From Candidatus Micrarchaeota archaeon (GTDB lineage Archaea > Micrarchaeota > Micrarchaeia > Burarchaeales > Fermentimicrarchaeaceae): a stretch of 55,717 nt of DNA. The DNA lies in NCBI GenBank assembly GCA_026396385.1, contig JAPLWV010000026.1, positions 1-55,717 of the forward strand, read 5' to 3'. Position numbers and translations under genes: made by a program. Under the pieces are notes generated by a model. The model did no database searches, was not told the DNA's origin, and saw only the letters and a program-made list of their open reading frames with translations. The first letter of the stretch is position 1, and every line of letters begins with the position of its first letter. Below are positions 1 to 28,524 of this stretch, piece after piece.

Positions 1-116
1 GCAAGGTAATATGCACAGGCTGCAAGAATGAGGGAGAAGTGAAGTATGCCCTGGAGCGGGCGATAAAGCTACTGGCTTCCCATGCAAAACCTCTGCCAGT
101 CCCCAAGAAGGGATAG
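1..116 (+). CDS. 3' end of a TATA-box-binding protein (TBP) repeat gene, truncated by the window edge
   Basis: Frame 3 reads ..KVICTGCKNEGEVKYALERAIKLLASHAKPLPVPKKG*. Positions 1-110 match 1718-1827 (tail of the solo TBP-repeat gene) with only 3 substitutions. Confidence 0.7.
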   Translation, partial: KVICTGCKNEGEVKYALERAIKLLASHAKPLPVPKKG

Positions 117-124
117 CCCCATGT

Positions 125-141
125 AAAGCAATCTTAATATA
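125..141 (+). promoter_or_regulatory. Motif A copy 1 (AAAGCAATCTTAATATA), orphan: no obvious downstream + strand gene
   Basis: Sequence identical to the copy at 5917-5933. It lies just after the TBP-fragment stop and faces the 3' end of the M23 gene. Confidence 0.5.
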
Positions 142-218: not shown

Positions 219-1265
219 TCATTTTTGTTCTGCGTTAAAAATGTCATTTCTTACAAAAGTTTTTCCATTGAAAGCAATTGGAATTCCTTCTCCCAACCTA
301 TTTTCTGCATGAATGTGCAGATGCGGTCCGGTTGTTCTTCCTGAGTTGCCTATTTTTCCCAGAGGCTGTCCAGTTGTAACCAACTCTCCTTCAAGAACAA
401 GCAAACTCCCTTTTTTAAAATGAATAAGACTAACTCTCGCCCCCGAACAATCCAAAATAACATGATTCCCGCCAGGTTCTTTTTCATTTCTTTGCATAAT
501 TGGCATATCCTCTGAAAGATTATTTGTCTCAAAAACAATTCCACTGCACGGCGCATAAACTGTTTCATCAAAAATATAATAATCAGACAAATTGCTTGAA
601 AAGAATCCTTTTCCCATAAATCCAAGAGAATCTATTTTAATTATGTCATACGCATATTTCTGTGATTTAGATTCATGATGACTATTTAATGCAGCATTGC
701 TTCCTGCTTCCGCAAAAAAATATTGCCCCCCTTTCAAAGGAAACTCAAGTTGTACTGCCTCCACAGGATAGAACTGCGCGTTAAAGCAAGTAATAGCGGT
801 AAGCAAAAACAAAACTGCCATTATTAGTAAACAAGCATAATAAAAATAATCTTTGATTCCAAGTTTCTTAAATAAAGGAAGTTTTTTTGCATTTCTTGGA
901 AGTTTTGTCTTTAATTGGATCATCCATACTTTTTGAAAAGAATAAATACTGGCAATCAAAAACACTATTGGAAAAAAGTATCTTAAATAATAATTGATTC
1001 CAGCCCAAGGAAGTAAAAAATAAACCCAGATAATGGATGAAGCACTAAAAATAAAACGCACAATCCAATCAACTTTTGATTCATTTTTACCGACAATTTG
1101 CCACAGAATAAGCAAAAGTGGAAAAACCAGTGAAAACAAATAGAATGGAGCAAGTTCAGATATTGCAGTAAAATCCATATAGGCTAATAACTCTAAAAAC
1201 GTATAAAAGATTATGCCTTTTCCGATATTTAAGCTTTTTATTCTACGTAAGCCAGCGGCGTGCAC
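219..1265 (-). CDS. Multi-pass membrane protein with a C-terminal M23/LytM-family metallopeptidase domain
   Basis: 348-aa ORF. The N-terminal two-thirds is strongly hydrophobic. The C-terminus carries the M23 signature GQPLGKIGNSGRTTGPHLHIHAE. Very AT-rich. GTG start per the ORF track; an internal ATG at 1178 is possible. Confidence 0.75.
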   Translation of the reverse strand: MHAAGLRRIKSLNIGKGIIFYTFLELLAYMDFTAISELAPFYLFSLVFPLLLILWQIVGKNESKVDWIVRFIFSASSIIWVYFLLPWAGINYYLRYFFPIVFLIASIYSFQKVWMIQLKTKLPRNAKKLPLFKKLGIKDYFYYACLLIMAVLFLLTAITCFNAQFYPVEAVQLEFPLKGGQYFFAEAGSNAALNSHHESKSQKYAYDIIKIDSLGFMGKGFFSSNLSDYYIFDETVYAPCSGIVFETNNLSEDMPIMQRNEKEPGGNHVILDCSGARVSLIHFKKGSLLVLEGELVTTGQPLGKIGNSGRTTGPHLHIHAENRLGEGIPIAFNGKTFVRNDIFNAEQK

Positions 1266-1452: not shown

Positions 1453-1469
1453 AAAGCAATCTTAAAATT
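1453..1469 (+). promoter_or_regulatory. Motif A copy 3 (ATGAAGCCAAAGCAATCTTAAAATT), putative promoter of the solo TBP-repeat gene
   Basis: TA-rich box about 55-60 nt upstream of the TTG start at 1525. Confidence 0.5.
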
Positions 1470-1524
1470 AGTCCATTAAAGGCTTGGTTATAAAGGAGTA
1501 GAGGAATAGAATATAGGTGTTTCA

Positions 1525-1830
1525 TTGACAAAGAAACTCACAATTGACTCAGCGTTCAAGATAGAGAACATAGTAGCTTCAGCCAATTTGGGAGTGGAGC
1601 TTGACCTTTATACCATTGCCAGCAAAATCAGGAACATAGAGTATGAGCCAGAGCAGTTCCCAGGGGCAATTCTTAAGCTGAAAGAACCAAAGGCATCTCT
1701 TCTGCTCTTCAAGAACGGCAAGGTAATATGCACAGGCTGCAAGAATGAGAGAGAAGTGAAGTATGCCCTGGAGCGGGCGATAAAGCTTCTGGCTTCCTAT
1801 GCAAAACCTCTGCCAGTCCCCAAGAAGTGA
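1525..1830 (+). CDS. Single-repeat (half) TATA-box-binding protein homolog
   Basis: The 101-aa ORF aligns along its length to one TBP repeat: KIENIVASANLGVELDL..EYEPEQFPGAILKLKEPKASLLLFKNGKVICTGCK..ALERAIKLL. Both Phe positions (EQFPG, LLLF) are retained. A canonical TBP has two such repeats (~180 aa). Confidence 0.8.
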   Translation: MTKKLTIDSAFKIENIVASANLGVELDLYTIASKIRNIEYEPEQFPGAILKLKEPKASLLLFKNGKVICTGCKNEREVKYALERAIKLLASYAKPLPVPKK

Positions 1831-1834
1831 GCAG

Positions 1835-2266
1835 ATGACAATAATCGGGAACAAAAGCAAATTGGCAAACTCGGAGATATGCCAAAGATGTGCCAAGTGT
1901 TGCAAGGAATATACTCTATACGATACTTTAGACTCCGCACTTAGGTTTAGATGGATGCTCGATAATACAATTATCACAGAGATCACAGAGGACACGCCTT
2001 TTACATTTGGGGATGGACTCGACATGAAGCAGATAACATTCAAAAAAGAGTGTGCTAAACTATATATGAAAGACGGAAAATATTACTGCTCGGTTTGGGA
2101 TAAGGAAAGACCTGATTTCTGTGCTATCGGCCCAGATAACTTATTTAGAGGAGTAGAAAAATGGAACAGGGAAAAGATACAGAAGATAATAGACTTTGAA
2201 AAAAAGGACTGCCCAATTTTTGAAACGATAACTGTTGATGAGGTAATTAAAAAATTGTGGAAGTGA
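1835..2266 (+). CDS. YkgJ/UPF0153-like cysteine-cluster (CxxCxxCC) zinc/iron-chelating protein
   Basis: ATG at 1835, 5 nt after the TBP-repeat stop (operon-like). CQRCAKCCK matches the CxxCxxCC signature, and more Cys residues follow downstream. The ORF-track start at 1799 overlaps the upstream gene and is less likely. Confidence 0.55.
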   Translation: MTIIGNKSKLANSEICQRCAKCCKEYTLYDTLDSALRFRWMLDNTIITEITEDTPFTFGDGLDMKQITFKKECAKLYMKDGKYYCSVWDKERPDFCAIGPDNLFRGVEKWNREKIQKIIDFEKKDCPIFETITVDEVIKKLWK

Positions 2267-2329: not shown

Positions 2330-2452
2330 ATGAAAGCTCCAACAGGTTGCATTTATAAGCGGGAAAAGAAGCGGAGGGCTAGGTATAAGGCATTTATTCT
2401 TCCTGACGGAACGGTTGGAACTAGAAAGATAAAAAAGGTGGTCTGTTATTAA
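2330..2452 (+). CDS. Small basic protein (40 aa), hypothetical
   Basis: MKAPTGCIYKREKKRRARYKAFILPDGTVGTRKIKKVVCY. Preceded by a strong Shine-Dalgarno-like GAGGTGG 6 nt upstream. Below the ORF-track length cutoff. Confidence 0.35.
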   Translation: MKAPTGCIYKREKKRRARYKAFILPDGTVGTRKIKKVVCY

Positions 2453-2606: not shown

Positions 2607-2632
2607 TTTTAAATATTCAAAATGAGCAATTT
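2607..2632 (+). promoter_or_regulatory. Motif B copy (TTTTAAATATTCAAAATGAGCAATTT): TATA box plus conserved downstream block
   Basis: Same cassette as seven other copies. Here the motif-internal ATG (2622) is in frame with the MVEEK start at 2646. Confidence 0.6.
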
Positions 2633-4739
2633 AATAGGCGAACTTATGGTAGAGGAGAAAAATAAGAAACCGCCTGTGACAACGGTCGACTCTAAGGAGA
2701 TACAAAAAGAAGTTGCAAAGCTGCCTATCCAAATGGGGCCAAAGGAGAAAAGTATAAAACAGGAAATCCCGGAGCCTAGGATAAAGGACGTTAAGGGACT
2801 CTCTCAAGAAACAAGGGAACTTTACGAGTCAGTATTAGAAAAAATAAAGCTTGAAAAAAATGATAAGAACATCCTCCTTCTCGATAAATTGGCTGAAGCA
2901 TCACGCGAAGCAGGCTTCAACCAGCATGGCCTATTCAAGAATGCACTTCCAGAACTGACAGGAGTGATAAATAATACTGAAGATTTGAAAGAAATTGCGA
3001 AACTTGGAGAGGCGGCATGCAAGGCGGGTATTAATCCATCTGAAATATTCACATATGCACTGCCTGCACTGGCAGGAATTATAAGGAATTCAGAAGATTT
3101 GAAAGAAATTGTCAAGTTAGGAGAGGCAGCATATGAAGCAGGCTTCGATGCGCGTAAACTATTCAAATATGGACTGCCTCCACTGGCAGAAGCAGGGCTG
3201 ATAAAGAATAGTGACTATTTGAAGGAAATTGTAAGACTTGGGGAGGTGTCATACAAAGCAGACTTCGATCCATGCAGTCTATTCGAACATGCGCTTCCGT
3301 TAATGGCAGAAGCAGGGCTGATAAGGAATACAGAAGATTTGAAAGAAATTGTGAAATTGAGAGAGGCGGCATGCAAAGCAGGCTTCCATCAATCTGACAT
3401 ATTCAGATATGCGCTCCCTGCAATGGCAAAAGCAGGGCTGATAGAGAATACGGAAGACTTGAGGGAAGTTGTGAAATTGGGGAAGGCGTCATACGAAGCA
3501 GGCTTCGATCCATCCGACATATTCACAAATGCGCTTCCGGCAATGTTAGAAGCAGGGCTGATAGAGAATACGGAGGATTTGAAAGAACTTGTAAGGCTGG
3601 GAGAAGTATCATATGAAGCAGGCTTCAATCCATCTGACATATTCAAATATGCGCTTCCGGAAATGGTGGGGGCAGGGCTGATAGAGAGTATGGAAGATTT
3701 GAAAGAAATTGTGAAATTGGGGGAGGCAGCATGCAAAGCAAGCATCAATCCATGTAGTATATTCGAACATACACTGCCTGCGCTGGCAGAAGCAGGAAAG
3801 ATAGAGAATACAGAGGATATGAAGATTATGGGGTATGAGCTGGTAAAGCTCGGGGAGGCGGCACGCAAAGCAGGCTTCAATCCATCTTCCTTATTTGAGC
3901 ACGTGCTACCTGCACTGGCAAAGGCGGGAATCATAAAGGATAAAGAATATTTGAAGGAAATTGTAAGACTTGGGGAAGTATCATACGAAGCAGGCTTCGA
4001 TCCATATCAGGTATTCAAATATGCGCTCCCTGCAATGGCAGAAGCAGGGCTGATAAAGAATACAGAAGATTTGAAAGAAATTGTGAAATTGAGAGAGGCG
4101 GCATGCAAAGCAGACTTCAATCCGTCTCACCTATTTGAACATGCACTGCCTGCACTGGCAGAGGCAGTAAAGATAGAAAATACGGAGGATATGGGAGTTA
4201 TAGGAAATGAACTGGTAAAGCTTGGGGAGGCGGCACGCAAAGCAGGCTTCAATCCATCTCCACTATTCGAGTACGTAGTACCCGCATTGGCGAGAGGAAG
4301 AGTTGTAAAGAATAGTGAATATCTGAAGGAAGTTGTGAAGCTGGGGGAGGCAGCATACGAGGCGGGCATAGATCCAACTAAACTATTCGAGTATGCGCTT
4401 CCTCCACTGGGAGGAATGATAGATAATATTGAAGATTTGAAAGAGATTGTGAAGCTGGGAGAGGCGGCATGCAAAGCAGACTTCAATCCATCCCCGATAT
4501 TTGAATATGCAGTACCCGCATTGGCGAGAGCAGGGCTGGTGGATAATATTGACTATTTGAAAGAACTTGTGAAACTGGGGGAGGCAGCATATGAAGCAGG
4601 TATCAATCCATATAAGCTGTTTAGATATACGCTCCCGGCAATGGCAAGGGCAGGAAAGATAGATAATACAGAAGAACTGAGAGTTAGAGGGGATGAACTG
4701 ATAAAGCGGGAAGCATCACGCAATGGATCGAATCAATGA
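2622..4739 (+). CDS. Tandem-repeat protein: about 15 copies of a ~38-47-aa predicted helical repeat, function unknown
   Basis: Repeat consensus (D/Y)LKEIVKLGEAA(C/Y)(K/E)AGFNPSxxFxYALPA(L/M)AEAGLIxNTE. Substitutions cluster at a few positions. The start may be ATG 2646 (MVEEKNKK) if transcription begins downstream of the motif B TATA. Confidence 0.85.
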   Translation: MSNLIGELMVEEKNKKPPVTTVDSKEIQKEVAKLPIQMGPKEKSIKQEIPEPRIKDVKGLSQETRELYESVLEKIKLEKNDKNILLLDKLAEASREAGFNQHGLFKNALPELTGVINNTEDLKEIAKLGEAACKAGINPSEIFTYALPALAGIIRNSEDLKEIVKLGEAAYEAGFDARKLFKYGLPPLAEAGLIKNSDYLKEIVRLGEVSYKADFDPCSLFEHALPLMAEAGLIRNTEDLKEIVKLREAACKAGFHQSDIFRYALPAMAKAGLIENTEDLREVVKLGKASYEAGFDPSDIFTNALPAMLEAGLIENTEDLKELVRLGEVSYEAGFNPSDIFKYALPEMVGAGLIESMEDLKEIVKLGEAACKASINPCSIFEHTLPALAEAGKIENTEDMKIMGYELVKLGEAARKAGFNPSSLFEHVLPALAKAGIIKDKEYLKEIVRLGEVSYEAGFDPYQVFKYALPAMAEAGLIKNTEDLKEIVKLREAACKADFNPSHLFEHALPALAEAVKIENTEDMGVIGNELVKLGEAARKAGFNPSPLFEYVVPALARGRVVKNSEYLKEVVKLGEAAYEAGIDPTKLFEYALPPLGGMIDNIEDLKEIVKLGEAACKADFNPSPIFEYAVPALARAGLVDNIDYLKELVKLGEAAYEAGINPYKLFRYTLPAMARAGKIDNTEELRVRGDELIKREASRNGSNQ
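2877..4700 (+). repeat. In-frame ~114-141-bp tandem DNA repeats within the repeat-protein gene, with a higher-order ~3-unit duplication
   Basis: Recurring gaagatttgaaagaaattgtgaa..ggagaggcggcatgcaaagcaggcttcaatcc blocks. The units containing TEDMKIMGYELVKLGEAARKAGFNPS and TEDMGVIGNELVKLGEAARKAGFNPS indicate duplication of a multi-repeat block. Confidence 0.85.
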
Positions 4740-4823: not shown

Positions 4824-5888
4824 ATGCTCAAGACAAGAGAGTATCAAGGACTGCCTGAAGCCGGGAATAAAGTGCAGGCGGAATTCCTGAAGGCTGCAGA
4901 AACCACACGCAGGATAGAGGAGTTTTCCAGGCACGTGGGTTCGGAAGAAATAATCAAAAGGGTACACGACAAACACGGCAGATTCATATTCCTAGACAAA
5001 GAAACTGTTTCAAAACTGCAGCTGAGAGCAAAGATGTCGTGCAAATGGGAAGAGGCGGGAGACTCCATTATGATGACTCCTCTGGAGAAAGCAGCAATTC
5101 AAGCGAAAATAATATTCAACCCTTCTAGCAATTCATTCATGGCAGTGCTTCCTAAGGGCATGCAGCCTGCGCAGCAATTCAAAGCCGGGGATGACGTGGA
5201 GTGGAGCTATGAGGGAAGGAGCCGGCTCTCGCTGGAAAAAGTGCTCTATCCTGGTATAATTCCCATCGTAACACTTAGCAGCGGCGGAAAGCACGGGACA
5301 GTCAGCCTACCTAAAAATATGGCTCTTGCGCTGGGGCTTGGGGGAAAGAAGCTGTGCGAATGGAATGAAGAGGGGAATTGCCTGATAATAACTCCTCTGG
5401 AGTTCAAAAAAAAGGACCAGCTCGTATCAAAAATTACGGAAAATCACAAAAGAGTGAGGTTGTATATACCTAGAGCAGTACAGGGAGCCGTCCGGGAAGG
5501 CGATGAAGTCATCATCAAGGGCATGGGGGACGGGAAGCTCTACATGTGGCGAATGGAAGACTTTCCCGGAGAGACTGGAGACAAGCTGCGCAACATCACA
5601 AAGATAAGGGGTTATGGCAGCGACAGCCTGCAAGCAACCATTACAAATTCAATGGCAAAGGAACTGAAAATCGAGAATGGGATGCACGGAGTCTGGACTC
5701 TTCATAAGGGGGAGCTATGGCTTGAGCTGACGCATGAGAACCCGCATATTACCGCAGTGATAGAGGAGAGGACGCCCAAGCACATATTCAGCATCTACCT
5801 ACCAGATGATATCGGCAAATCCCTCAAGGAGGGAGACAGGATTACCCTGGAAGTGTGGTACGGGAAGCTTTACATCCAGAAGAAGTAA
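4824..5888 (+). CDS. Protein built from about six tandem AbrB/SpoVT-like (swapped-hairpin) modules
   Basis: Six ~45-55-aa modules match the AbrB/MazE pattern (x-hhh-LPKxhxxxLxhxxGDxhxhxxxxGxhhhxP): GRFIFLDKETVSKLQL.., FMAVLPKGMQPAQQFKAGDDVEW.., GTVSLPKNMALALGLGGKKLCEW..CLIITPLE, VRLYIPRAVQGAVREGDEVIIKGMGDGKLYMWRME, LQATITNSMAKELKIENGMHGVW..LWLELT, FSIYLPDDIGKSLKEGDRITLEVWYGKLYIQK. Confidence 0.55.
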   Translation: MLKTREYQGLPEAGNKVQAEFLKAAETTRRIEEFSRHVGSEEIIKRVHDKHGRFIFLDKETVSKLQLRAKMSCKWEEAGDSIMMTPLEKAAIQAKIIFNPSSNSFMAVLPKGMQPAQQFKAGDDVEWSYEGRSRLSLEKVLYPGIIPIVTLSSGGKHGTVSLPKNMALALGLGGKKLCEWNEEGNCLIITPLEFKKKDQLVSKITENHKRVRLYIPRAVQGAVREGDEVIIKGMGDGKLYMWRMEDFPGETGDKLRNITKIRGYGSDSLQATITNSMAKELKIENGMHGVWTLHKGELWLELTHENPHITAVIEERTPKHIFSIYLPDDIGKSLKEGDRITLEVWYGKLYIQKK

Positions 5889-5916: not shown

Positions 5917-5933
5917 AAAGCAATCTTAATATA
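5917..5933 (+). promoter_or_regulatory. Motif A copy 6 (ATGAACCCAAAGCAATCTTAATATA)
   Basis: About 30 nt upstream of the start at 5957. Confidence 0.5.
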
Positions 5934-7791: not shown

Positions 7792-8157
7792 ATGGATTCA
7801 GAAGCTACTTTGGATGACTTAAAGAAGACCGTTAAAAAGTTTTGCGAAGATAGGGACTGGGATCAGTACCACAATGCGAAAGATTTAGCAATAGGGATTA
7901 TAACCGAATCATCAGAACTGTTGGAGCACTTCCGCTTCAAGTCAGAAAAGGAGATAGAGGAGATGTTCAAGGACTCAAGGAAAAAAAGTGAGATTTCAGA
8001 GGAGATGGCGGACGTATTCTACTTCCTCCTTAGACTGGCTCAGAAGTATGATATAGACCTCGGTTCTGAGCTGAGTAAGAAAATAGCACACAATGAGAAG
8101 AAATACCCAGTTGAAAAATCAAGAGGCTCTAATAAAAAATATACGGAGCTGCTGTAG
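7792..8157 (+). CDS. MazG-like nucleoside triphosphate pyrophosphohydrolase (DCTPP1/all-alpha NTP-PPase type)
   Basis: FCEDRDWDQYHNAKDLAIGIITESSELLEHFRFK and EEMADVFYFLLRLAQKYDIDL give the ExxE and EExxD metal-binding helices. KIAHNEKKYP tail. Confidence 0.8.
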   Translation: MDSEATLDDLKKTVKKFCEDRDWDQYHNAKDLAIGIITESSELLEHFRFKSEKEIEEMFKDSRKKSEISEEMADVFYFLLRLAQKYDIDLGSELSKKIAHNEKKYPVEKSRGSNKKYTELL

Positions 8158-8159
8158 AT

Positions 8160-10013
8160 ATGAAATTATATGAAGGAGATTTAGAGCAATTCAGAGAAGA
8201 CGTTCTTAATAATAGAATCGCAGATATAATGCGGAATAAAGCCAATGAGTATAAAGTAAATGTTAGCAGATCCGAGTATAGGTCTTGGCAGATTTCTCCA
8301 AGAGTCTTTAAAGATGCAGTTTCTCAGCTCCATAATAACAAGATTATACTCGAATACAGATTCCCTAACTATGGCGGAAGAATAGACGTCATTCTTTTTG
8401 GTAAGCATAACGGGTCGGACCAGGTAGTCATTACAGAATTGAAGCAATGGTCAAATGATAGTGTAAGCGACTGTGAGGATGAGGGAAGCGTGATAGCAGA
8501 GATTAATGGGCATATGGTGAAAATGGCTCATCCATCATCACAGGTTGAGGGTTATTACCTTAGCTTAATAGACAACTTACAAGTTTTTGATGAGAAACCA
8601 GAGATAAAATTGCATGCTTCTGCATACTGCCATAACTACTCTAGAGAGAATGACAAGGTGCTATACCAGGATAAATTCAAAGAAATAACCGACAAATATC
8701 CACTATTTACAAAAGAGGACAATGCAAAACTTGGCGAATATCTCAGAGACAGGCTGGTAGACGATAACGGGATAGAAGTCTTTAATCGCTTCGTAAACAG
8801 TCCTGTAAGGCCATCTAAAGGTTTAATACAGCACGTAGGGGACATGATTAACAAGCAACAGATATTTAATTTAATTGACGAGCAGATACCGGCACGCAAT
8901 GCAATTATCAGCAGGGCAAAGGAATTGGCAAAGTCTGGTAAGAAATTCGTGATAATTGTAAAGGGAGGGCCCGGCACTGGAAAGTCTGTCATTGCACTGG
9001 AGACAATGGCAGAACTCCTGAGGAAAGGGAAGAACGTATTTTATGCAACAGGCTCATCCGCATTTACAAATACTCTTAGGAAGGTTGCGGGTAAAAGGGC
9101 AAAAGACAGGTTCAAGTATTTCTTCAGCTTTACGCGTCATAAAGAAAATGAGATTGATGTGCTAGTGTGCGATGAGGCACATAGGCTAAGGAAGAATAGC
9201 GCAGATTACGGAGTTCCTTCCCATCTCAAATCAGAGTTGCCGCAGGTTGAAGACTTGATACGGCCAGCTAGACTAACTGTCTTCTTCATAGATGAGCATC
9301 AGATAGTAAGGCCGAGTGAAGTTGGGGATGTTGCACTGATTAGACAGGCTGCTTTAAAGCTTAATGCTGAAGTAGAGGAATTTGATTTAAAAACTCAATT
9401 TAGATGCGGAGGTTCAGAAGCCTATTTGCAATGGCTGGAGAATACTCTTGGCATAACAGAATCCGAGGTGCGGATGCTGGGTAAAAATGAACAGATGGAA
9501 TTTAAAATATTTGACAGCCCAGAAGCGCTTAGGGATGCGATATACGAGAAGAACAAGGCAAGGCCTAATTTCGCTAGAATCGCAGCAGGTTTCTGCTGGC
9601 CATGGAGTAAGCCGAACGCTGATGGTAGTTTAGTTAATGATGTAAAAATAGGAAGTTTTGAGATGCCGTGGGAGAGGAAGGACGAGTTTTGGAAATGGGC
9701 CACAGATGAGAGCGGAATGGAGCAGGTTGGAACAGTTTATACTGCACAGGGGTTTGAATTTGACTACATTGGGGTTATTTTTGGGAAGGATTTGATTTAT
9801 GACAAGGAGAATAACACTTGGAAGAGCGATCCGAAGAGTTCGCATGACAGCATGATAAAAAGGAATAATGAAACTTTGACAAAACACTTGAAAAACGTAT
9901 ATCGCGTTTTGATGTCAAGGGCGCATAAGGGAGTTTACATCTATTTTATGGATAAGGATACGGAGAACTTCTTTAAGTCTAGAGTAGAAAGCTACAACCC
10001 GCCCCCAAGGTGA
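8160..10013 (+). CDS. DUF2075-type (Schlafen-helicase-like) P-loop ATPase with an N-terminal PD-(D/E)xK nuclease-like domain
   Basis: N-terminal GRIDVILFG..VVITELKQW (D..ExK). Walker A VKGGPGTGKSV. Walker B VLVCDEAHRL. C-terminal YTAQGFEFDYIGVIFG and VYRVLMSRAHKGVYIY, typical of DUF2075/SF1-like proteins. Starts 3 nt after the MazG stop. Confidence 0.75.
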   Translation: MKLYEGDLEQFREDVLNNRIADIMRNKANEYKVNVSRSEYRSWQISPRVFKDAVSQLHNNKIILEYRFPNYGGRIDVILFGKHNGSDQVVITELKQWSNDSVSDCEDEGSVIAEINGHMVKMAHPSSQVEGYYLSLIDNLQVFDEKPEIKLHASAYCHNYSRENDKVLYQDKFKEITDKYPLFTKEDNAKLGEYLRDRLVDDNGIEVFNRFVNSPVRPSKGLIQHVGDMINKQQIFNLIDEQIPARNAIISRAKELAKSGKKFVIIVKGGPGTGKSVIALETMAELLRKGKNVFYATGSSAFTNTLRKVAGKRAKDRFKYFFSFTRHKENEIDVLVCDEAHRLRKNSADYGVPSHLKSELPQVEDLIRPARLTVFFIDEHQIVRPSEVGDVALIRQAALKLNAEVEEFDLKTQFRCGGSEAYLQWLENTLGITESEVRMLGKNEQMEFKIFDSPEALRDAIYEKNKARPNFARIAAGFCWPWSKPNADGSLVNDVKIGSFEMPWERKDEFWKWATDESGMEQVGTVYTAQGFEFDYIGVIFGKDLIYDKENNTWKSDPKSSHDSMIKRNNETLTKHLKNVYRVLMSRAHKGVYIYFMDKDTENFFKSRVESYNPPPR

Positions 10014-15646: not shown

Positions 15647-15760
15647 GATAATCCACCAGACTAGCGTTAATATTTTTGTATATATTAACTTTGCTACCTT
15701 GCCAACCTAATATCCTCAGCCGTAACCGTCTTCCTGCATGCTTCGCCAGCTTCACCGAAT

Positions 15761-21195: not shown

Positions 21196-22053
21196 TTAGG
21201 CATGTTCTATATTCCTTCCGTACCAGTATACATACTGCTGTGCGTACCCCGCGTATCCATCCCAGTATTTCCTTGCGAATTCCGCTATTTCCTTGTCGCT
21301 CACATTTTTGTTCTTGAAATACACCTTTCTCATAGTCCTTCTGACCCACACATCTATGGGGAATGATTCCAGCTTTCCATAGGAGAAGAGCAGGACACAA
21401 TCTGCTATCTTCTCGCCGACTCCTTTCATTCTCATTAGCTCCATCCTGCCCTCGTTGTAGCTCATGTCAGCTATGCAGCTCAGGTCTATTCTGCCGGAGC
21501 ATGCTTTTGCAGCGTTCTTCAGATACTCCGCCCTGAAGCCAAGCTTGCACTGCTTCAGAGATTTAAGATTGACTTGAGAAAGGGAAAGGGCATCTGGGAA
21601 GCGGTAGAAACTCTCTCCCTCTACCTCAATTTTTTCCCCAAAAGTGCGGGAGAGGTTTCCTACTATGCATTTTATGTTTCTCAGATTGTTGTTTGTTGAG
21701 CAGATGAATGATGCTAGAGTCTCCCAGGGGTCTGAGAGAGTAAGCCGTAACCCATAGAATTCTGCAATTGCCTTTAGCATGAATTCGTCCTTTATGAGCC
21801 TCCTGTAGATGAGCTTCATGTCATCCTTCAGCCTGAACCTGTCCTCAACAACCTCTCTTATTTCCTCCTCGCTTGTATCTCCCTTCCACTCAACATTCAA
21901 TTCATACTTATTCTGCTGGAGCGATACAATAGCTCCTTCAACCAGAAAACGTGCTGCTCCCTTTTCGTAGCTCATGAGGAAAAACGGGGGCTGCCCACTG
22001 AGCATTGTATGTTCAAGGCTGAAACAGCTTACTGGAATGGTTATGGCAGGCAT
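21196..22053 (-). CDS. ogg: 8-oxoguanine DNA glycosylase/AP lyase (OGG1-type HhH-GPD)
   Basis: MKGVGEKIADCVLLFSYG and FPIDVWVRR match the OGG1 HhH-GPD Lys/Asp motif. Confidence 0.75.
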   Translation of the reverse strand: MPAITIPVSCFSLEHTMLSGQPPFFLMSYEKGAARFLVEGAIVSLQQNKYELNVEWKGDTSEEEIREVVEDRFRLKDDMKLIYRRLIKDEFMLKAIAEFYGLRLTLSDPWETLASFICSTNNNLRNIKCIVGNLSRTFGEKIEVEGESFYRFPDALSLSQVNLKSLKQCKLGFRAEYLKNAAKACSGRIDLSCIADMSYNEGRMELMRMKGVGEKIADCVLLFSYGKLESFPIDVWVRRTMRKVYFKNKNVSDKEIAEFARKYWDGYAGYAQQYVYWYGRNIEHA

Positions 22054-26737: not shown

Positions 26738-28027
26738 TCAACCGTGTGAGGATGCCGCAAACGTATCACCTAAAATGCCTCGTATCCTGCCAAGCAGCTC
26801 AATCTCAGTTGGGCTGAGGAACTCCCTGTACTTGCTCAGTAGCAGCTTGGCATGTGCCCTTGGGACATTGGAATACAGTACATCTCCCTCATTCACCTGC
26901 CTTCCGAAAGTGGGCTCACTCATTGAGATTGCAACCTGCATTCCCTCCTTTGCTTCTGCTATGCTCTCCTTCTCGCTCTGTATTGCCTTTATTTTCCCCA
27001 CAGCCACTCCTTTCTCATTTATCAGCTCATACTCCGGCTTTATTCTTCCAGCAGTTATATCCACTCCGAATATTGCGGGGTGGGAAGTCCTGAAGCAGCA
27101 GCCGGCCATAACCTTCAGCCTGGCGGGCAGTGTCAGTGAGGAGAAAGCCTGGCTGCGCTCCGATTCCCTTTCCTTCTCAACCCACTTCTTGTAGTTGTCG
27201 AGCAACGCGTATATTATCCCCTCTTTCATTATTGTTATCCCAGTCCTCCTGGACTCCTCCTCTGCATCCTCAAGAACATCAACGTTGAATGAGAGAACTA
27301 CACCGTAATACCTGTTCTGGTTCCTTATCCCTGATGCATCAACAACATCCTTCTTCACAACAGCGCCTATGCCTGCCTTGCTAACGGGCACCTTCTCATC
27401 CTTCAGAAGCTTCGTTATCGCTTCAAGAGAGCCCAGCGTATCAGCTTTCAGTATAACTCCTTCCTCACCCTTCTCGATGAGTACTGCTTTTATCTCCTTG
27501 TCTACTTCTGCCTTCAGCTTCCTCTCATCAGACTTGCCTGCAACGAATATGGGTGAGCCTGCAATTGCATCCTCCAAGCCAGGAGCTGCTATTTTCACTC
27601 CAGCGGCAGCATGCACTTCCTCCACATTCAGGAATTTCTCCTTTGGATCTCTCATCTCATCAAGCGGCTTGGGTCTTAGTAACGCTCTGACCTTCGTAGT
27701 CCTTGCTCCATTGATAGTTCCGAACACTATCGTGTCTCCTCTCCTGATTACGCCATCGTAGAATATTGCATCAACAGTCTTCCCAAGCCCTGTCTCATCC
27801 TTCACTTCCAGTATGCTCCCCCTTCCCTCCCCCTTCACCTTAAGATGCAGCCTGGTCTTGAGGAACCTCTGGGATAAACCCGCTATGAACATGAGCAGCT
27901 CGTTCACCCCTTCGCCCGTCTTTGCGCTTATGGGTATTATTGCGATCTGTTTTGTGAAATCTGAAATCCTGTCAAACCTCTCTGACTGGAAGCCCAGCTC
28001 GCTTAATCTTCCTACAAACTGGTAAGC
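26738..28027 (-). CDS. infB: Translation initiation factor aIF5B (IF-2), C-terminal ~430 codons; the frame is displaced from the N-terminal fragment
   Basis: The frame is open from about 28033 and reads [83 protein letters not shown]. This continues the aIF5B G domain into domains II-IV. Confidence 0.85.
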
Positions 28028-28524
28028 TTCTTCTCAAGTTCCTGTTGCGCATGCGGCGGCTGGGAGTTGAAGGATTGCATAAATGTTGAGTCGGGATGAG
28101 AAACCCAGCCGTCTACCAAATCTATCTTGTTCATTGCAATTACAAAAGGAGTCTTGTAATCCCTCAGAATCTCAATTGTCTCAAGTGTCTGGGGCTCAAA
28201 CCCTTTCGTGATGTCCAGTACGAGCACAGCCATGTCTGAGATGCTGCCTCCTCTCTCTCTCAGGTTTGTGAATGCCTCGTGGCCTGGCGTGTCTATGAAG
28301 AGCAGGCCGGGTATCTCCAGCTTTGTCTGCATGAGGGCCATCATCGCGCTGCAGGCTTTGACTATCACCTCTGTCGGCACCTCGCTTGCCCCTATGTGCT
28401 GCGTTATGCTCCCCTTCTCTCTCTTTGCAACAGAAGTCTTCCTTATCTTGTCTAGCAGGGAAGTCTTCCCGTGGTCTACATGACCCATCACCACTACAAT
28501 AGGCTGCCTTATCATATCAAACAC
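28012..28524 (-). CDS. infB: Translation initiation factor aIF5B (IF-2), N-terminal GTPase fragment, ending at a premature stop after a frame change
   Basis: [32 protein letters not shown]. The frame ends ..[11 protein letters not shown], where homologs continue in the other frame. Confidence 0.85.

Follow-up and report, generated by a model that had tools for sequence, protein, structure and literature searches.

The window analysed here is an entire NCBI contig of 55,717 bp and has the gene content of an ordinary archaeal chromosome, including PolD, MCM, aIF2-gamma, EF1-alpha, Nop5, fibrillarin, Topo VI, and several aminoacyl-tRNA synthetases. Near its left end lies a complete gene for a single-repeat TATA-binding protein (TBP), here called TBP-B (1525..1830, + strand, 101 aa, TTG start), which has no upstream (N-terminal) extension because of an in-frame TAG stop at 1507-1509. 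A second copy, TBP-A, is represented at 1..116 (+) by its 3' end, comprising the last 37 codons and the stop TAG at 114-116, and is truncated by the contig end. Since the window is the whole contig, its left edge marks a point where the assembly broke within a repeated gene, and an exact-protein look-up for an upstream extension of the contig gave no further record. Two related loci serve for comparison, one on a JGI metagenome contig (L002) and one from the MAG GCA_026396455.1 (L003). In both, the gene order is ArgRS, TBP-A, a minus-strand gene, TBP-B, a gene for a CxxCxxCC protein, and a 40-aa ORF.

As the earlier note had it, TBP-B in the window is co-oriented with the CxxCxxCC (PF03692) gene at 1835..2266 (+; 143 aa, Pfam E 1.8e-5) and with a small, conserved basic ORF at 2330..2452 (+; 40 aa). 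The CxxCxxCC protein starts at the ATG at 1835, not at 1799, and is 99.3% identical to the product of a 143-aa gene in L003, where the ATG overlaps the TBP-B stop as ATGA. The 40-aa ORF has a 97.5% identical counterpart in L003, predicted there as a gene, and has no family match in Pfam or NCBIfam. Both genes accompany TBP-B only in near-identical relatives, and for this reason the CxxCxxCC protein was rejected as a conserved functional partner of TBP. A TFB-like cyclin protein, which the same note had placed in this island, was not recovered, as Pfam finds no TFIIB or cyclin domain in the ~45 window ORFs, the unassigned ones having also been searched at E<=1. Between the two TBP copies lies a gene for an M23 peptidase (219..1265, - strand; PF01551, E 1.5e-10), contained in a variable segment (117-1273) that represents an indel between two TBP direct repeats. 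The M23 gene is missing between A and B in L002 and L003, and positions 1274-2496 of the window match L003 at 97.5%. Ca. Fermentimicrarchaeum limneticum has an M23 gene 96% identical to it, in the opposite orientation.

TBP-B is preceded by a promoter-like (BRE/TATA-like) motif at 1456..1469 (+), which is also found ahead of each of the two TBP genes in L002 and L003. The motif, (A)AAGCAATCTTAATATA, occurs six times in the window against 0.53 expected, with five copies on the + strand of the first 6 kb (128-141, 1282-1295, 1456-1469, 2569-2582, and 5920-5933) and one on the - strand (15681-15694). It precedes TBP-B, a gene for a 705-aa repeat protein, and a beta-CASP gene, and it is also found at both boundaries of the M23 indel segment and flanking an insertion in L002. 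The copy at 128..141 (+), GCAATCTTAATATA, lies just after TBP-A and forms the left boundary of the segment absent from L003. The motif could act both as a strong promoter and as a substrate for recombination. The 705-aa protein (2622-4739, +), which has the motif upstream, consists of ~16 near-identical units of ~40 aa (…EDLKEIVKLGEAA.KAGF.PS.IF..ALPA…) and has no convincing Pfam family. A 354-aa protein encoded at 4824-5888 (+) gives weak, repeated SpoVT/AbrB (MazE_antitoxin) matches and adjoins a MazG-like gene (7792-8157) and a Schlafen-type helicase (8160-10013), and these genes may form a defence-like cluster.

TBP-B has a single Pfam match, to PF00352, spanning residues 11-91 and model positions 2-84 of 85 (E 2.8e-30; 104.4 bits, gathering cutoff 22.9), which bears out the earlier description of a free-standing single-repeat TBP gene at 1525-1830. 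Both DNA-kinking phenylalanines mentioned there are found as the intercalating F45 and F62, together with the stirrup motif E41-P-E-Q44, and all of these are invariant in 17 aligned solo TBPs. The alignment has 45 invariant columns, including F45, F62, and EYEPEQFPG, and its invariant segments include FKIENIVASANL in strand S1 and EYEPEQFPGAILK in the stirrup. In a larger set of 129 solo repeats, both Phe (columns 39 and 56) are 100% conserved. The gene encodes one repeat with stops on both sides, not the two tandem repeats of canonical TBP, and a six-frame search (hmmsearch --max, E<=10) of all 55.7 kb turned up no additional TBP repeat, whether intact or decayed, and none in the stretch 1300-1524. 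Against the NCBIfam TBP models (NF00159x), TBP-B matches half of each model and reaches at best 96.6 bits versus a cutoff of 270; owing to such half-length matches below the cutoff, many homologues are labelled 'hypothetical protein'.

The AlphaFold2 monomer model of TBP-B (mean pLDDT 79.9) has the order S1-H1-S2-S3-S4-S5-H2, and when it was compared with the PDB using Foldseek, ranks 1-44 were all TBPs. The TM scores were 0.70-0.76 when normalised to the query and ~0.41 on two-repeat targets, showing that the model covers half a saddle. In terms of sequence, TBP-B scores about equally against the N and C repeats of solved archaeal TBPs, with 72.9/70.5 bits for M. jannaschii and 74.2/64.3 bits for S. 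acidocaldarius. The gene is intact and under purifying selection, with Nei-Gojobori dN/dS values of 0.08-0.23 between TBP-B and six related copies, and the start column is conserved across copies, being TTG in B and GTG in A. A 1-nt deletion at 1825-1837 distinguishes TBP-B from L002 and L003, making its C-terminus 3 aa shorter and removing the ATGA stop/start overlap with the CxxCxxCC gene; the deletion may be genuine or may have arisen in assembly. A conserved 5' leader (1470..1524, +) lies upstream of the start codon; over ~70 nt, the B copies of the window, L002, and L003 differ from one another at 0-1 sites and from the A copies at 4-6. A TATA-like element, GGTTATAAAGG, lies at 1481-1493 within the leader common to both TBP copies, downstream of the promoter-like motif, and is a possible candidate site for autoregulation by TBP.

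TBP-A and TBP-B are nearly identical where they can be compared in the window. Positions 1-110 align without gaps to 1718-1827, the last 110 nt of the gene before the stop, with 3 substitutions (107/110 nt identical), and the similarity ends at the stop codon, where the edge copy reads AAGAAGGGATAG (KKG-stop) and the ORF reads AAGAAGTGA (KK-stop); the earlier note had given the same count and the same end point. The edge copy translates to KVICTGCKNEGEVKYALERAIKLLASHAKPLPVPKKG followed by the stop and matches the HMM with an E of 8e-12. In L002 and L003, TBP-A is 102 aa long, has a GTG start, and ends in PLPVPKKG-stop, and TBP-B is 104 aa long and ends in KKVSR-stop. The KKG end, together with the synteny with L002 and L003, identifies the edge copy as the orthologue of TBP-A and thus as a complete solo repeat. 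Hence, of the two origins that had been considered for it, the C-terminal repeat of a canonical TBP falls away and the solo repeat stands.

The similarity between A and B begins at the promoter-like motif, ~60 nt upstream of the start codon, and continues through the leader and coding sequence to the stop. Over the last 110 nt, A and B of the window differ at 3 sites, whereas A of the window differs from the A copies of L003 and L002 at 8 and 9 sites, respectively, and B differs from the B copy of L003 at 9 sites. Similarly, A and B of L003 differ at 8 of 304 sites, and the B copies of L002 and L003 differ from each other at 21. Paralogues in one genome therefore resemble each other more than orthologues in different genomes do, even though the genomes have the synteny in common, which argues for concerted evolution by gene conversion. 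The sequence pattern points to an older duplication homogenised by gene conversion, and the earlier proposal of a recent duplication is rejected because the A/B arrangement is common to relatives and the copies within one genome are the closest.

A protein search with TBP-B gave 835 matches, and ~80 of the best 120 are single-repeat proteins of 90-125 aa. The named sources of these single-repeat proteins are Micrarchaeota, namely Burarchaeum, Gugararchaeum, Micrarchaeia, and Fermentimicrarchaeum. A genome scan using one genome per GTDB species, taken as far as 600 candidates, yielded at least 583 confirmed loci, of which the best 80 were analysed; these come from 79 assemblies, nearly all Micrarchaeota. 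Genes of ~100 aa, for which the earlier note would have related genomes searched, are plentiful, since 44 of these best 80 loci are solo (stop-bounded ORFs in 43 assemblies). The other 36 are two-repeat genes, one with an in-frame stop and one with a frameshift. Of the 44 solo loci, 37 have genes for L21e, Rpo4/RpoF, and DUF655, and in many cases KsgA, no more than 3 kb away, as do 34 of the 36 two-repeat loci, and this common neighbourhood makes the solo gene the positional orthologue of the TBP that has two repeats in related lineages. Among the 79 assemblies contributing the best 80 loci, none has both a solo and a two-repeat TBP, and 42 of the 43 solo-bearing assemblies have one solo locus only. 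Single-repeat TBPs are thus widespread in Micrarchaeota and usually occupy the normal position of the TBP gene.

The only assembly with more than one locus among the best 80 is the MAG closest to the window, which carries A and B (L004) and, next to L21e, a third solo gene encoding 100 aa (L006). In addition, the closed 1.18-Mb genome of Ca. Fermentimicrarchaeum limneticum (CP058998.1) has two solo copies. One is a core copy (QLJ53355.1, L085) beside L21e-Rpb4-DUF655-KsgA, and the other is an accessory copy (QLJ52669.1) that, like the window copies, has genes for an M23 peptidase and a beta-CASP nuclease nearby. At the core locus the TBP gene lies divergent beside L21e-Rpo4-DUF655-KsgA; these neighbours are found at the core copies of the closest MAG and of CP058998.1, and the arrangement is absent from the window copies and loci L001-L005. 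The presence of core and accessory copies in both genomes indicates that A and B of the window are lineage-specific accessory paralogues of the core solo TBP, to which they are ~80% identical, with saturated dS and a dN/dS of 0.08. Neither the window nor the closest MAG showed a two-repeat TBP, and there was none among the top matches. Beyond what the earlier note described, TBP-A and TBP-B are accessory copies of a family found at the canonical TBP locus across Micrarchaeota, and because they lie outside that conserved locus, they may be specialised or regulatory and not general factors.

The two repeats of Micrarchaeota two-repeat TBPs are more alike (N versus C repeat identity of median 63%, up to 84%) than those of three solved archaeal TBPs (45-56%), and TBP-B is equidistant from them, with 64% identity to the N repeats and 63% to the C repeats. 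A flanking-gene tree was built by neighbour-joining from L21e, RpoF, DUF655, and KsgA (597 columns, 67 loci, midpoint rooting). In this tree, 32 two-repeat loci form one clade, and one further two-repeat locus, L080, stands separately as sister to the solo locus L074 inside a solo clade. The state changes between solo and two-repeat number 2, versus ~19 expected for shuffled states in a 56-locus version. The repeats of L080 (3001-3549) have 84% protein and 80% DNA identity, their differences falling mostly at third codon positions; both carry lineage-specific residues of the solo TBP of L074 (2959-3273), and they are sisters in 172 of 200 bootstraps of the repeat tree. Taken together, the repeat identity, the L074 residues, and the tree position suggest that the two-repeat TBP of L080 was re-created from a solo one, and the sequences make a good case for one tandem duplication from solo to two-repeat.

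For the large two-repeat clade, re-duplication would be favoured by midpoint rooting, in a tree without an outgroup, and by the equal distances between solo, N, and C repeats. The neighbour-joining tree of repeats had given rise to the idea of many independent re-duplications, which is weakened by the placement of 32 two-repeat loci in one clade in the flanking-gene tree. Intragenic conversion or poor resolution accounts better for the N/C sister pairs inside this clade. Separately, the two-repeat TBP of L043 (2629-3261) has an in-frame TAG in its second repeat, in place of the invariant Ser of NIVASANL, for which sequencing error, pseudogenisation, or recoding of the stop are possible explanations.

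The pseudo-dyad of canonical TBP is where its S1 and S1' strands pair with each other. With one repeat per chain, a saddle is possible only as a dimer, as the earlier note had reasoned. The reading we lean towards is that 1525-1830 (TBP-B) and the tail at 1-116 (TBP-A) belong to near-identical, functional single-repeat TBPs of a relative of Ca. Fermentimicrarchaeum limneticum (Micrarchaeota, DPANN) that are extra copies of the core solo TBP and would form a symmetric saddle by pairing. More generally, Micrarchaeota with a solo TBP probably make their DNA-binding saddle from two copies of a small protein, and from sequence comparison we infer a symmetric dimeric saddle as the likely mechanism. 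Two solo chains would pair through the central S1 strand to give a truly symmetric ten-stranded saddle, which would bind and bend TATA-like DNA with four Phe and present two identical EPEQ stirrups to TFB. With such a saddle, promoter polarity would come only from the BRE-TFB contact. Work from 1999 by Bell and by Littlefield and their colleagues is said to have shown that archaeal promoter polarity is set by this contact and not by TBP, and a symmetric TBP would thus be compatible with the archaeal system.

The conservation of S1 is consistent with a dimeric saddle. The S1 entropy is 0.31 bits in solo TBPs, compared, in two-repeat relatives, with 0.89 bits for the N repeat and 1.04 bits for the C repeat, and the other regions are similar; the low value fits a self-complementary interface, although the higher conservation could be partly due to sampling. 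Between accessory and core copies, the S1 segments are identical and most substitutions fall in helices H1 and H2, which lie on the upper surface, making heterodimers of accessory and core copies plausible. Heterodimers of A, B, and core TBP would then have DNA binding in common and differ in their regulatory surface. Haloarchaea have multiple TBP and TFB paralogues per genome, which may diversify promoter use. The lineage of the window likewise has several TBP paralogues per genome, but here they are half-size, and unlike in haloarchaea, combinations would arise at dimer assembly. We give about even credence to the wider proposal that most Micrarchaeota initiate transcription on a truly homodimeric solo TBP, the positional orthologue of canonical TBP, and that the two-repeat form has been re-created by tandem duplication at least once (L080) and possibly also at the base of the large clade.

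Alternatively, it could be speculated that TBP-A and TBP-B are monomeric modulators and not saddle-forming general factors, for example, decoys that titrate TFB via the stirrup or cap the core TBP. This is unlikely in our judgement, yet it would suit their position outside the L21e-Rpo4 TBP locus in a variable region with indels and their occurrence only in the closest relatives, and halobacterial TbpA, a dispensable single-domain TBP, offers a parallel (PMC3597702). However, the DNA-contact Phe and the whole concave-face sequence are under strong purifying selection, which a pure TFB decoy would not need, and the identity of S1 between TBP-A/B and the core solo TBP also speaks against this reading. 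Less probable still is that the solo genes are the halves of a split TBP, with the accessory and core types as obligate heterodimer partners in the N and C roles. It is true that a core copy of 100 aa and an accessory copy, ~80% identical, occur together in the closest MAG and also in the closed Fermentimicrarchaeum genome. Yet a second copy of more than ~55% identity should appear in the scan, and nearly every solo-bearing assembly among the best 80 loci has a single one; moreover, the accessory type occurs only in one small lineage, and neither type prefers N or C repeats. Finally, the truncation of the edge copy by the contig end, the TTG start, and the 1-nt deletion near the 3' end of TBP-B relative to L002 and L003 might suggest a truncated pseudogene or, for the edge copy, an assembly artefact, but this is very improbable given the low dN/dS, the conserved start column, the absence of a decayed first repeat upstream, where the earlier note had likewise seen no TBP-like reading frame, hundreds of intact homologues of 90-120 aa inside long contigs, and the complete A copy in L002 and L003 with an identical KKG end and a different downstream flank.

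The solo, saddle-forming TBP proposed here can be set against several known systems. Canonical archaeal TBPs (M. jannaschii 2Z8U, S. acidocaldarius 1MP9, P. woesei 1PCZ/1AIS) have PF00352 and the predicted fold in common with TBP-B, either repeat being 41-48% identical to it, with the paired Phe alike. The EPEQ stirrup, which contacts TFB in the C-terminal repeat of canonical TBP, is also present in TBP-B. In contrast, canonical TBPs have two repeats per chain, whereas TBP-B has one, scores ~1/3 of the NCBIfam cutoff, and would need a true homodimer to make a saddle. The two-repeat TBPs of other Micrarchaeota (Bilamarchaeaceae P0150, loci L007-L081) are found at the L21e-Rpo4-DUF655 locus, as is the core solo TBP, and each of their repeats is 57-73% identical to TBP-B, but the two repeats lie in one chain.

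Monopartite TBP-domain proteins as such have been described before and are of two kinds, the TBP-like, non-essential TbpA of halobacteria and the diverged proteins of ~95 aa in Thermococcales (PMC3597702). TbpA closely resembles the full-length TBPs of its own species and is like TBP-B in being a free-standing single domain that clusters with genuine TBP repeats and an extra paralogue in a genome with several TBP genes (PMC3597702). However, TbpA is non-essential and occurs beside full-length TBPs, whereas the other TBP genes found in the genomes closest to the window are also single-repeat, and unlike TbpA, the solo form in Micrarchaeota occupies the conserved TBP locus in many lineages. The Thermococcales proteins likewise have a free-standing single TBP-fold domain of ~95-100 aa (PMC3597702, Table 3), but they are highly diverged, form a separate cluster, and occur beside a normal TBP, whereas the family of TBP-B is strongly TBP-like (Pfam E 1e-30) and extremely conserved. 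All the monopartite proteins in that study accompany a normal TBP, and every contemporary TBP variant is said to be double-repeat (Brindefalk et al. 2013, PMC3597702).

According to the literature up to 2026, TBP is two-repeat in all archaea and eukaryotes (PMC7289017, PMC12917281, PMC3597702), and a monopartite TBP is still treated as ancestral and hypothetical in a review of archaeal transcription from 2018 (PMC7289017) and a structural study from 2026 (PMC12917281). A comparative genomics study of DPANN notes TBP as conserved and says no more of it (PMC8407392). In the literature searched, whose scope left out most subscription journals, there was no report of a single-repeat TBP in DPANN, and such terms appeared only in Brindefalk 2013 and a 2026 poxvirus paper. 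Thus, the phylum-wide solo form of TBP is probably new.

If the proposed reading holds, Micrarchaeota would be living examples of the pre-duplication state of TBP that has long been postulated, and the three solo paralogues in the lineage of the window could combine into as many as six different saddles. A solo TBP that is conserved and under selection at the TBP locus throughout the phylum would open the hypothetical single-repeat ancestor to experiment, and with it questions such as whether a perfectly symmetric saddle binds TATA, how polarity arises with identical stirrups, and what course duplication and fusion took. For the internal duplication of TBP, L080 and its solo relative L074 would serve as a natural before-and-after pair. 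At the level of the family, this reading would come as a surprise to transcription specialists and would make the ancestral-homodimer hypothesis testable. Furthermore, as solo TBPs fall below curated cutoffs and are often annotated as hypothetical, DPANN genomes may be mis-scored for TBP content.

Two further genes of the window deserve mention. An 8-oxoguanine DNA glycosylase with an OGG_N domain is encoded at 21196-22053 (-); in the TBP-domain superfamily as treated by Brindefalk et al. (2013, PMC3597702), it belongs to the non-TBP branch. In addition, aIF5B/IF-2 is present as two ORFs at 26738-27907 (-) and 28012-28524 (-), ~100 nt apart, one piece being a 170-aa GTPase domain and the other comprising 389 aa with domains II-IV, which may reflect a split gene or a frameshift.
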